Shown here: one piece after another, positions 1 to 2,353 of the stretch
Position numbering within the stretch: position 1 is the first letter of the stretch
Layout: every line of letters starts with the position of its first letter
NCBI RefSeq assembly: GCF_003334335.1
Contig: NZ_QOWQ01000089.1
DNA: 2,353 nucleotides
From: Escherichia coli
GTDB lineage: Bacteria > Pseudomonadota > Gammaproteobacteria > Enterobacterales > Enterobacteriaceae
Strand: one strand, 5' to 3'
Made by a program: the position numbers and the translations under genes
The notes under the pieces: model-generated
What the model was told of the DNA's origin: nothing
Database searches by the model: none
Seen by the model: the letters and a program-made list of their open reading frames with translations, nothing else

Positions 1-263
1 CGAGGGAATTAGCCGATGCGAGAGCTGAAAATGAAACTCTGCGCGCTGACGTTGCCGCTGGTCGTAAGCGCCTGCGGGTCAACGCCACCTGCCCCGGTAC
101 CGTGCGTGAAGCCACCGGCACCTCCGGCGTGGATAATGCAACCGGCCCCAGACTGGCAGACGCCGCTGAACGGGATTATTTCATCCTCAGAGAACGGTTG
201 ATGACAATGCAGAAGCAGCTGGAAGGGGCACAGCTATACATTCGTGAGCAATGCCTCAGATAA
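1..263 (+). CDS. Rz: Rz i-spanin (inner-membrane spanin subunit), C-terminal part; 5' end lies upstream of the window
   Basis: Frame 3 (codons from position 3) is open to the TAA at 261-263. Translation is ...RELADARAENETLRADVAAGRKRLRVNATCPGTVREATGTSGVDNATGPRLADAAERDYFILRERLMTMQKQLEGAQLYIREQCLR*, which closely matches the lambda Rz C-terminus as I recall it (...ATLRADLAAGRKRL...SGVDNA..PRLAD.AERDYFTLRERLITMQKQLEGTQKYINEQCR). It is absent from the ORF track because its start codon is upstream of the window. Confidence 0.85.
   Translation, partial: RELADARAENETLRADVAAGRKRLRVNATCPGTVREATGTSGVDNATGPRLADAAERDYFILRERLMTMQKQLEGAQLYIREQCLR
16..201 (+). CDS. Rz1: Rz1 o-spanin (outer-membrane lipoprotein spanin subunit), embedded in the +1 frame of Rz
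   Basis: 61-aa ORF MRELKMKLCALTLPLVVSACGSTPPAPVPCVKPPAPPAWIMQPAPDWQTPLNGIISSSENG. It has a signal peptide with a lipobox-like LVVSAC (Cys20), is proline-rich, and has a conserved PPAWIMQP..DWQTPLNGIIS block matching lambda Rz1 from memory. It lies entirely inside the Rz reading frame, the classical Rz/Rz1 arrangement. A GAGGG Shine-Dalgarno-like motif at 2-6 precedes the ATG. Confidence 0.85.
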   Translation: MRELKMKLCALTLPLVVSACGSTPPAPVPCVKPPAPPAWIMQPAPDWQTPLNGIISSSENG

Positions 264-597
264 AAACCGGCCAAGGATAATCCGCTGAAGATTTGCCGGT
301 GGCTAAAGGGGCCAAGCCACCAATTTACGTAATTAGCCACAGAGATACAATATTTTAGTTTACTTATGTATTTCTGAAGCATGTCTTTGCGCAGTATCGT
401 CGCCGTATTCCCACATGAACAGAGACCGCAGCCCTACCGGGAGACTCCTCTGCGCGAGTGTGCGGGGATAATCAAAAACGATACACACCGGGGTTTACCG
501 CGTTAACGGAGCGCGGCGTTGTCCCCTCATGGTCGCTGGTCCGGTGCGATGGTGGAAGAAACTGGATTTTGTTGCAACTGACAATCATTATCATTTT

Positions 598-615
598 GTC
601 GGGTCCTTTCCGGCA
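598..615. other. cosQ-like element upstream of cosN (approximate position)
   Basis: The block gggtcctttccgg (601-613) sits about 17-30 bp upstream of the cosN nick and is the same as the lambda right-end sequence I recall (GGGTCCTTTCCGG...GTTACG). In lambda, cosQ lies in this position. Exact boundaries cannot be set from sequence alone. Confidence 0.3.
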
Positions 616-624
616 TATGGACCC

Positions 625-648
625 GTTACGGGGCGGCGACCTCGCGGG
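625..648. other. cosN, the terminase nicking site; the 12-nt cohesive end corresponds to 631-642
   Basis: The sequence gttacg|GGGCGGCGACCT|cgcggg is present. GGGCGGCGACCT is the lambda cohesive-end sequence, followed by cgcgggttttcgctatttatgaaaattt as at the lambda left end. Predicted nicks are between 630/631 on the top strand and 642/643 on the bottom strand. Confidence 0.8.
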
Positions 649-682
649 TTTTCGCTATTTATGAAAATTTTTCGGGAAAAAG

Positions 683-694
683 CATGTCAGTTCT
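683..694 (+). promoter_or_regulatory. R3-like terminase binding element
   Basis: catgtcagttct, followed by tctt. Lambda R3 from memory is CGTTTCCGTTCT at the same offset from cosN. Confidence 0.55.
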
Positions 695-699
695 TCTTG

Positions 700-720
700 T
701 TGTTAACTTATTGTTTTTAA
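700..720. promoter_or_regulatory. Candidate IHF site (I1-like) between R3 and R2
   Basis: AT-rich segment ttgttaacttattgtttttaa. It contains taacttattg, which partially matches the IHF consensus read on the reverse strand (YAAnnnnTTGATW) and is at the position of lambda I1 (ATAACTTAATGTTTTTA from memory). The match is imperfect. Confidence 0.35.
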
Positions 721-735
721 AGAAATAATCATCAA

Positions 736-750
736 GAAAGAAACGACATC
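736..750 (-). promoter_or_regulatory. R2-like terminase binding element (inverted)
   Basis: The top strand reads gaaagaaacgacatc. Its reverse complement is gatgtcgtttctttc, which shares the core ATGTCGTTTCT with the R3-like element. Lambda R2 is likewise inverted (top strand AGAAAGGAAACGACAG from memory). Confidence 0.55.
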
Positions 751-783
751 AGAACGCTGAAAAATCTGTCTTTTTTGGCATTT

Positions 784-795
784 CATGTCGTAACT
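784..795 (+). promoter_or_regulatory. R1-like terminase binding element
   Basis: catgtcgtaact shares catgtcg with the other two elements but diverges in the 3' half. It lies about 24 bp upstream of the Nu1 start, comparable to lambda R1. Confidence 0.4.
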
Positions 796-818
796 GATTT
801 TTGATAAGGAATTGCTGA

Positions 819-1367
819 ATGAATGTTAATAAAAAGAAGCTTGCTGAAATCTTTAATGTCGATATACGCACTATTGATCGCTGGCAAACTCAGGGGCTCC
901 CTCAGATATCTGGTGGAGGAAAAGGTGTTGAGGTCATCTTTGATTCTGCGAAGGCGATCGAATGGTATGCTCAGCGCGAAGCTGATATTGAAAATGAAAA
1001 ACTCCGTAAAGAGGTCGAGGATTTGAGGGCTGCCAGCGAATCAGACCTTCAGCCCGGCACCATTGATTACGAACGTTACCGACTGACGAAGGCACAGGCA
1101 GATGCACAGGAACTGAAAAATGCCCGCGACAGTGGGCAGGTCATTGATACAGGGTTTTGCCTTTTTGCTCTGGGAAGACTGGCACAGGAGATCTCTGCCA
1201 TTCTTGACTCCATTCCATTGTCCATGCAGAGACAGTTTCCGGCACTGACGCCCGCTATGCTTGATTTCCTGAAAACCGATATAGCAAAGGCGGCAAACCG
1301 ATGCGCATCAACGGCAGAGAAGTTACCGGAGATGCTGGATGAATACCTCAGAGAAGCAGCTAAATAA
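819..1367 (+). CDS. nu1: Terminase small subunit (lambda gpNu1 family)
   Basis: 182-aa ORF beginning [39 protein letters not shown]..., versus lambda Nu1 MEVNKKQLADIFGASIRTIQNWQEQGMPVLRGGGKGNEV... (from memory, 181 aa). Conserved features are the N-terminal winged HTH, the GGGKG motif and the central block [30 protein letters not shown]. An AAGGA Shine-Dalgarno motif at 806-810 lies 8 nt upstream of the ATG. Confidence 0.92.
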
Positions 1368-2353
1368 CTTTGCTGTTGTTTGTGGAGTGGCACTTCGTGG
1401 GCTTTTACGCCCACTGCCTGTAACCACCGTTGAATGGGCCGATCAAAATTATTATTTGCCCCCGGAGTCCTCTTATCTTGCTGGGCGGTGGAAGACGTTG
1501 CCCTTTCAGGTGGCAATAATGAACTGCATGGGTAATGACCGGATCCGCACAATTAATCTTATAAAATCAGCTCGAGTCGGTTACACCAAAATGCTGATGG
1601 GCGTTATTGGTTACTTTATTGAGCATAAAAACCGTAACAGTCTTCTGTTTCAGCCTACGGATTCTGCCGCTGAAGATTTTATGAAGTCTCATGTGGAGTC
1701 AACATTACGGGATGTTCCCTGTCTGAAAATTCTTTCCCCCTGGCTGGGGCGTAAGCACCGGGATAACACACTGACATTAAAAAGATTCACGTCCCGTGTG
1801 GGGTTCTGGTGCCTGGGTGGTGCTGCCGCCAAAAACTACCGTGAAAAATCCGTGGACGTGGTCTGCTATGACGAACTTTCCTCGTTCGAGCCGGATGTCG
1901 AAAAAGAGGGCTCGCCAACCCTGCTGGGGGATAAGCGTATTGAGGGCTCGGTATGGCCAAAATCCATTCGCGGCTCGACGCCTAAAATAAAAGGCTCCTG
2001 CCAGATCGAAAAAGCGGCCAACGAGTCGGCGCATTTCATGCGTTTTTATGTGCCCTGCCCACACTGTGGGGAGGCGCAGTATCTGAAATTTGGCGATGAG
2101 TCCACGCCTTTTGGCCTTAAATGGGAGAAGGACAGTCCAGAAAGTGTTTTCTACCTCTGTGAACATCATGGCTGCGTGATCCATCAGTCTGATCTTGACC
2201 AGAGCAACGGGCGGTGGATCTGTGAAAACACGGGCATGTGGACCCGTGACGGCCTGACGTTTTTCAGCGCTGCGGGTAATGAAATTCCGCCGCCGCGCTC
2301 CATCACATTCCATATCTGGACGGCGTACAGTCCGTTCACCACCTGGGTACAGA
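1339..2353 (+). CDS. A: Terminase large subunit (lambda gpA family), N-terminal 338 codons; continues past the window end
   Basis: Frame 1 is open from the ATG at 1339 to the window end. Translation is [86 protein letters not shown]...[10 protein letters not shown]...[25 protein letters not shown]...[20 protein letters not shown]...[23 protein letters not shown]...[17 protein letters not shown]. It is collinear with lambda gpA from memory, including the P-loop-like KSARVGYxK with Lys at codon 76 and YDE with Glu at codon 179. A GGAG Shine-Dalgarno motif at 1328-1331 precedes the ATG, and the start overlaps the Nu1 3' end by 29 nt. It is absent from the ORF track because there is no stop codon in the window. 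Confidence 0.92.

Follow-up and report, generated by a model that had tools for sequence, protein, structure and literature searches.

An intact cos site between the Rz/Rz1 and terminase genes of a lambda/21-like phage sequence from Escherichia coli

Lambda virion DNA is linear and carries 12-base 5' cohesive ends. The stretch of E. coli DNA analyzed here (2353 nucleotides in all, referred to below as the window) holds lysis genes, a cos site, and terminase genes in one piece, which raises the question of which form of phage DNA the sequence was taken from. That the three are contiguous had been claimed in an earlier note made from the letters of the DNA, and all three were indeed found in the window, adjoining one another on the + strand (Table 1). 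The results support the identification of the window as an ordinary junction of a lambda/21-like E. coli phage, with the lysis genes, cos, and the terminase genes in prophage order. We estimate a probability of about 0.85 that the cos junction is real and uncut and belongs to a temperate lambda/21-like E. coli siphophage of the PhiR5_1 type, most probably from a sequence in prophage (att-to-att) order. Lambda (J02459) and phage 21 (OL657228) served as references for the comparison.

Table 1. Features placed in the window, in order of position
Feature	Position	Strand	Description
Rz (i-spanin), 3' part	3..263	+	last 86 codons and stop; gene start upstream of the window
Rz1 (o-spanin lipoprotein)	16..201	+	lies wholly inside Rz, +1 frame
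Conserved non-coding block	388..566		mosaic linker between Rz and cos
cosQ GGGTCCT	601..607	+	packaging-termination subsite; identical to annotated phage 21 cosQ
cosN cohesive-end 12-mer GGGCGGCGACCT	631..642	+	12/12 bases as in lambda and 21
I2 segment	643..679	+	spacer between cosN and R3; 33/37 bases identical to lambda and to 21, no gaps
cosB R3 AAGCATGTCAGTTCTT	680..695	+	predicted main TerS binding site; bp 50-65 as in annotated phage 21
cosB I1 AAACAATAAGTTA	704..716	-	predicted IHF site; aligns to phage 21 I1, bp 74-86
cosB R2 TCTGATGTCGTTTCTT	738..753	-	inverted relative to R3 and R1; aligns to annotated 21 R2; core GATGTCG at 750
cosB R1 TTTCATGTCGTAACTGA	781..797	+	aligns to annotated 21 R1; core CATGTCG, same as 21
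Nu1 (TerS)	819..1367	+	182 aa; Pfam Phage_Nu1, E 1e-81
A (TerL)	1339..2353	+	first 338 codons; continues past the window end

The part of Rz present in the window shares 74% identity with the Rz proteins of lambda and 21 and matches PHROG 13, 'Rz-like spanin' (E 6e-40). The Rz of the closest database record, PV340545.1, carries the annotation 'endopeptidase Rz'. The Rz1 protein is 68-70% identical to its counterparts in lambda and 21, matches PHROG 3198 (E 1e-30), and shares with both phages the lipobox Cys20 and the proline-rich block PPAWIMQP..DWQTPLNGIIS. With an Rz1 open reading frame that lies fully inside Rz in the +1 frame, a lipobox cysteine, and a proline-rich mature part, the pair has the makeup of an embedded two-component spanin.

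On the other side of cos, the TerS protein covers positions 1-163 of the 164 in the PF07471 model, a full-length Phage_Nu1 match with the N-terminal winged helix-turn-helix. It also matches the structure of the lambda Nu1 DNA-binding domain (1j9i, E 3e-25) as well as PDB entry 6hn7; its identity is 62% with lambda Nu1 and 64% with gp1 of phage 21. As in lambda, the start of A overlaps the end of Nu1, here by 29 bases. The TerL segment at 1339-2352 matches Pfam GpA_ATPase (PF05876, E 4e-55) and PHROG 15 (E 7e-179), with 84% identity to the TerL of 21 and 69% to lambda gpA. The endonuclease domain of TerL falls past the window and is placed, by annotation only, in the 642-aa CDS of PV340545.1. 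None of the four proteins matched an NCBIfam family; PHROGs and Pfam did name them.

The cos site between the two gene groups is complete. The cosQ sequence GGGTCCT occurs once in the window and is kept in lambda, in 21, and in every relative examined. It is separated from cosN by 23 bases, the same spacing as in phage 21, in the position of a lambda-like cosQ, a 7-bp element that precedes the left nick by about 24-30 bp. The cosN 12-mer GGGCGGCGACCT has a single match in the window, where 0.01 would be expected by chance. From homology, the predicted nicks fall at 630/631 (top strand) and 642/643 (bottom strand). When the search was made more sensitive, base 1 of the virion-order records of 21, 434, phi80, Perceval, and ev243 aligned to window base 631, and since these records begin exactly there, base 631 is taken as the mature left end; for 21, 434, and phi80, the sticky end at which the record starts has been defined by experiment. 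Over bp -30 to +96, an ungapped comparison gives 102/127 identities to lambda and 99/127 to 21. The I2 segment follows cosN (Table 1); its spacing and sequence have been reported to act in termination (PMC4669245). A 7-base patch at window 614-621, which separates cosQ from cosN in part, is found only in the window and in PhiR5_1 and differs in the chromosomal relatives. It yields a 7-bp inverted repeat, CGGGTCC at 600-606 and GGACCCG at 619-625.

The earlier note had further stated that Rz and Nu1 lie at opposite termini of virion DNA and that cosN in the window is internal and intact. Both statements hold. In lambda, Rz occupies 45966-46427 and Nu1 191-736; in phage 21, the i-spanin gene is at 40575-41036 and cosQ at 42902-42908 of 42931, with TerS at 189-737. 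In the window, base 631 is uncut and is flanked by Rz and Nu1 on its two sides. Mature virion DNA of the lambda type, read from end to end, cannot have an uncut internal cosN with these flanks, and the proposed derivation from a prophage, a circle, or a concatemer is thus supported. For lambda-like phages, an internal cos in prophage, circle, and concatemer alike is long-standing textbook knowledge, and the feature as such is already known.

The subsites of cosB were placed by projecting the annotated subsites of phage 21 onto the alignment. They follow the order R3-I1-R2-R1 and span 680-797. Three R repeats, with R2 inverted and a predicted IHF site between R3 and R2, give the arrangement of a lambda-like complex cosB. 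A core motif, [CG]ATGTC[AG], has four copies in the window, three of which fall inside the 120-bp cosB stretch, at 683 (+), 750 (-), and 784 (+), with the orientations that were expected. About 0.06 copies would be expected in 120 bp (Poisson P ~3e-5); the motif was picked post hoc, but the positions had been predicted from the 21 annotation.

These elements bear on the idea that the cos site belongs to a cos-bearing satellite, such as a Gram-negative PICI, or to a cosmid-like construct instead of a phage. PICIs do carry cosQ and cosN sequences that are almost the same as in lambda-like helper phages, but in PICI cos sites there are no R repeats, and rpp takes the downstream place of Nu1 and A (PMC9026076). 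The window, in contrast, has three R repeats, the IHF site, and full Nu1 followed by A downstream, with Rz/Rz1 upstream, and the full record PV340545.1 encodes a complete lambdoid phage. A PICI or cosmid origin, to which we would assign hardly any probability, is refuted by this gene content.

Between the Rz stop codon and the start of Nu1, positions 264-818 are non-coding and hold cos. Short open reading frames occur in this stretch, including two that run across cosN (458-664 and 529-720), and they were treated as non-genes; the two closest records, PV340545.1 and strain 99RCEF, annotate none of them. Of 5426 E. coli genomes, about 2000 carry the block at 388-566 (90-95% identity), and no annotated gene covers it. 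It also adjoins a different, unrelated terminase module, and it has a counterpart with 76% identity in phage 21 at 41542-41704. In one close relative, about 770 bp of extra genes are inserted at about window position 570-579. Folding of 264-600 on both strands gave no sign of a structured RNA (z-scores -0.36 and -0.45), and an Rfam scan of the whole window with E values up to 1 returned zero matches. A scan for promoters and terminators gave site counts at chance level. It returned two promoter-like sites on the + strand, at 324-351 and 700-729, and no terminator-like site on the + strand between Rz and Nu1, which is consistent with late transcription across cos.

The closest record to the window is that of Escherichia phage PhiR5_1 (PV340545.1), with 99.9% identity and 2 mismatches in 2353 positions, at window positions 78 and 349. 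The counterpart of the window lies at 24886-27238 of 50981, so that cos is situated in the middle of the record. The order of this record is integrase (40-1326), early genes, lysis genes, cos, and then head and tail genes up to the tail fibers. Near its two ends, at 55 and 50848, is an att-like direct repeat with 21 of 23 bases matching (ATGGGGCAT and ATGGGACACTTT). The record gives E. coli C as the host on which PhiR5_1 was grown; a literature search on the PhiR5_1 phage series found nothing relevant.

At least 80% of the window was present as one chromosomal piece in 33 complete E. coli genomes, and the seven closest of these complete chromosomes are 99.0-99.3% identical to it; like PhiR5_1, they share its gene order and cos. 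In E. coli 99RCEF, the copy (99.3% identity) is part of a prophage of ~48.7 kb that extends from the tRNA-Ser/hya genes (~774.6 kb) to an integrase beside yccA (~823.3 kb). Its cosN is at ~799.45 kb, the center of the prophage. A roughly central cos has been described for lambda-like prophages (PMC4669245), and the layout in 99RCEF agrees with that description. The check suggested in the earlier note, a search of the flanks for integrase, att sites, and host genes, was made on these two nearest relatives, PV340545.1 and 99RCEF, and its outcome was as predicted. In IMG/VR, a 40-base pattern laid over the variant base 349 retrieved five contigs, none identical to the window and the best at 99.2%; four independent contigs run through the Rz-cos-Nu1-A junction.

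The same records decide whether the junction could be an assembly artifact in which two contigs from virion ends were misjoined through the 12-base cos overlap, the scenario by which the earlier note would have been overturned. No support for it was found beyond the general complementarity of cos ends. Rz, cos, Nu1, and A are contiguous in the 33 complete chromosomes, in a phage record of 99.9% identity, and in the four independent IMG/VR contigs, which excludes such an artifact. Moreover, the join equals the cos of lambda and of 21 that is made by joining their virion ends, which is the natural ligated state. We therefore regard a misjoin as exceedingly improbable.

The form of the DNA is a separate matter from the reality of the junction. 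The window itself carries neither an att site nor an integrase, nor any host DNA, and taken alone it fits a prophage, a ligated circle, a concatemer, or a rotated virion assembly equally well. The case for prophage order is drawn from the nearest records and from their sequence layout. The sequence could instead derive from a circular replicative form, a concatemer, or a virion assembly closed at cos and opened at an arbitrary point, with no integrated prophage involved. All of these forms share the same junction, and the window holds nothing that separates them; in addition, the closest record comes from an isolate that was propagated as a phage on E. coli C, for which the sequencing of particle or lytic DNA is plausible. 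Because of that propagation, the PhiR5_1 sequence may come from virion or replicating DNA that was later rotated to prophage order. However, PV340545.1 begins at the integrase end and has att-like repeats at both ends, which is the layout of a prophage and not of an arbitrary cut, and the near-identical copies in the 33 complete genomes are chromosomal prophages. An origin of the window in circular, concatemeric, or cos-closed virion DNA is thus unlikely, and a sequence in prophage order is preferred.

If the established mechanism of lambda applies by analogy to the phage of the window, as we infer, the ends of the injected DNA would anneal and be ligated, restoring cos and joining Rz to Nu1. 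A late transcript that starts at pR' would then cover S-R-Rz/Rz1, cross cos, and continue through Nu1-A to the head and tail genes. Integration through an attP remote from cos would produce a circularly permuted prophage map with cos near its center. Packaging would take place on concatemers, where TerS (Nu1) would bind R3, R2, and R1 of cosB across a bend induced by IHF at I1. TerL (gpA) would then nick cosN with cuts 12 bases apart, and cosQ would be required for cutting of the downstream cos on the concatemer, which terminates packaging. The roles of the cos subsites are taken from PMC4669245 and PMC9026076.

Compared with lambda, the window has the same architecture, gene order, and late-operon logic, and the same cosQ and cosN. 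The two differ in the R sites, which in lambda have a CGTTTCC core with T at bp 56 and C at bp 59 of R3, whereas R3 of the window has G and A at these positions. Phage 21 and the window have the same cosQ and the same 12-base cohesive end, R3, I1, inverted R2, and R1 are placed at equal distances, and the start of TerS is at bp 189 in each. The R cores of 21 are of the TGTC type, like those of the window (CATGTCA, GATGTCG, and CATGTCG), and bp 56 of R3 is G in both. Of residues 1-28 of TerS, 23 match 21 and 18 match lambda.

The packaging specificity of phage 21 has been assigned to G at bp 56 and G at bp 59 of R3 together with Glu and Ser at TerS residues 20 and 24 (PMC4669245). The window differs from 21 at bp 59 of R3, where it has A, although the equivalent base in its R1 and R2 is G. 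At TerS residues 20/24 it has D/T, compared with E/S in 21 and Q/E in lambda, and D/T resembles E/S in chemistry. Judged from these sequences, the cosB repeats and the predicted recognition helix of TerS are phage 21-like and not lambda-like, with small differences. Glu-24 of lambda TerS has been reported to clash with a G at bp 56 (PMC4669245). Since the window has G at this position, packaging of its DNA by lambda terminase would probably fail.

The first 36 residues of TerL contain 17 that equal lambda and 12 that equal 21, and the remainder is 21-like. The gap between Rz and cosN is ~370 bases in the window, whereas in phage 21 this interval is occupied by bor and a TonB-like cassette and in lambda ~2 kb (bor and others) separates Rz from cos. 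This mixture of lambda and 21 features is ordinary lambdoid mosaicism. In three IMG/VR relatives, similarity to the window ends at base 677, immediately before R3, and restarts at 1429, at about TerL codon 31. From this break, cosB, Nu1, and the start of A appear to have been swapped as one cassette.

It is conceivable, although we consider it doubtful, that the cosB/TerS pair defines a natural packaging specificity distinct from those of both lambda and 21, either as a third 'complex cosB' class or as a natural counterpart of the lambda-21 hybrids made in the laboratory. The features that may point in this direction are A at bp 59 of R3 and Asp-20 and Thr-24 of TerS in a setting of 21-like DNA recognition. 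The more lambda-like C terminus of TerS and N terminus of TerL may be cited as well.

The importance of the locus is small, in that the window is a clean example of a known arrangement. It is of use in annotation, where window base 631 marks the predicted left virion end for phages of the PhiR5_1 type. Because the records of the PhiR5_1 group are written in prophage order, tools that assume that records start at the physical ends would be misled by them. A third packaging specificity, if true, would affect which resident prophages and satellites this phage cross-packages.

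Three relatives from IMG/VR (L008, L009 and L010) lose similarity to the window at 677/678, directly 5' of R3, and regain it at 1428/1429, at about codon 31 of TerL. Between these breakpoints, both cosB (GGGATCCATGTCCGG...) and TerS differ from those of the window, so that the segment from cosB through Nu1 into the start of A appears to be exchanged as a single cassette.

The R cores of cosB in the window (680-797) are CATGTCA, GATGTCG, and CATGTCG, and R3 has a G at bp 56, counted from the left end of cosN. This cosB and the TerS recognition helix (819-900) resemble those of phage 21 and are not of the lambda type. 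Compared with phage 21, the window differs at bp 59 of R3, which is an A, and at TerS residues 20 and 24, which are D and T. The packaging specificity could be that of phage 21 or of a near variant thereof.

One IMG/VR contig, L006 (4502 onward), is 98% identical to window positions 1-566 but departs from the window upstream of cosQ, and GGGCGGCGACCT is absent from it. The packaging module next to the shared lysis module is apparently a different one in this contig. The non-coding block at 388-566 occurs with 90-95% identity in about 2000 of the 5426 E. coli genomes, it adjoins a DUF1441-type terminase module in locus L011, and its counterpart in phage 21 (41542-41704) is 76% identical. The block has no gene annotation, a search of Rfam gave no match, and its folding energy is not unusual.

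A close relative, L012, contains about 770 additional bp (L012 1070-1842) at window position ~566-579; the insert holds one gene of the YlcI/YnfO family and one hypothetical gene. In other relatives, the annotation lists further genes, for example for a TonB-family protein, somewhere in the matching stretch from Rz to the terminase genes. Bor-type genes occupy this interval in phage 21 and lambda. In the window the insertion site is empty, so that only ~370 bases separate Rz from cosN.

Compared with chromosomal relatives, the window shows a clustered 7-base change within 600-625 (GCATATGGACC versus GCGATCCGGGC). As a result, there is a perfect 7-bp inverted repeat that includes cosQ, CGGGTCC (600-606) and GGACCCG (619-625), with a 12-base spacer. 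Among the loci examined, only the window and PhiR5_1, its nearest record, have this arrangement. The PhiR5_1 record has a direct repeat close to each end, ATGGGGCAT(AC/GT)ATGGGACACTTT, which is probably the att core; the ~110 bases beyond the right copy may be host flank.

Coordinates of the direct repeat and of the terminase subunit termini
Feature	Record	Coordinates	Match between the two copies
Direct repeat, first copy	L001 (PhiR5_1 locus)	55-77	21/23
Direct repeat, second copy	PV340545.1 (PhiR5_1)	50848-50870	21/23
TerS C terminus	window	1240-1364	
TerL residues 1-36	window	1339-1446	

TerS is bound by the N terminus of TerL. Residues 1-36 of TerL are nearer to lambda (17/36 identities) than to phage 21 (12/36), and the remainder of TerL in the window is 84% identical to that of phage 21. 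The region of the TerS C terminus and the TerL N terminus looks like a natural mosaic resembling the laboratory lambda-21 hybrids.
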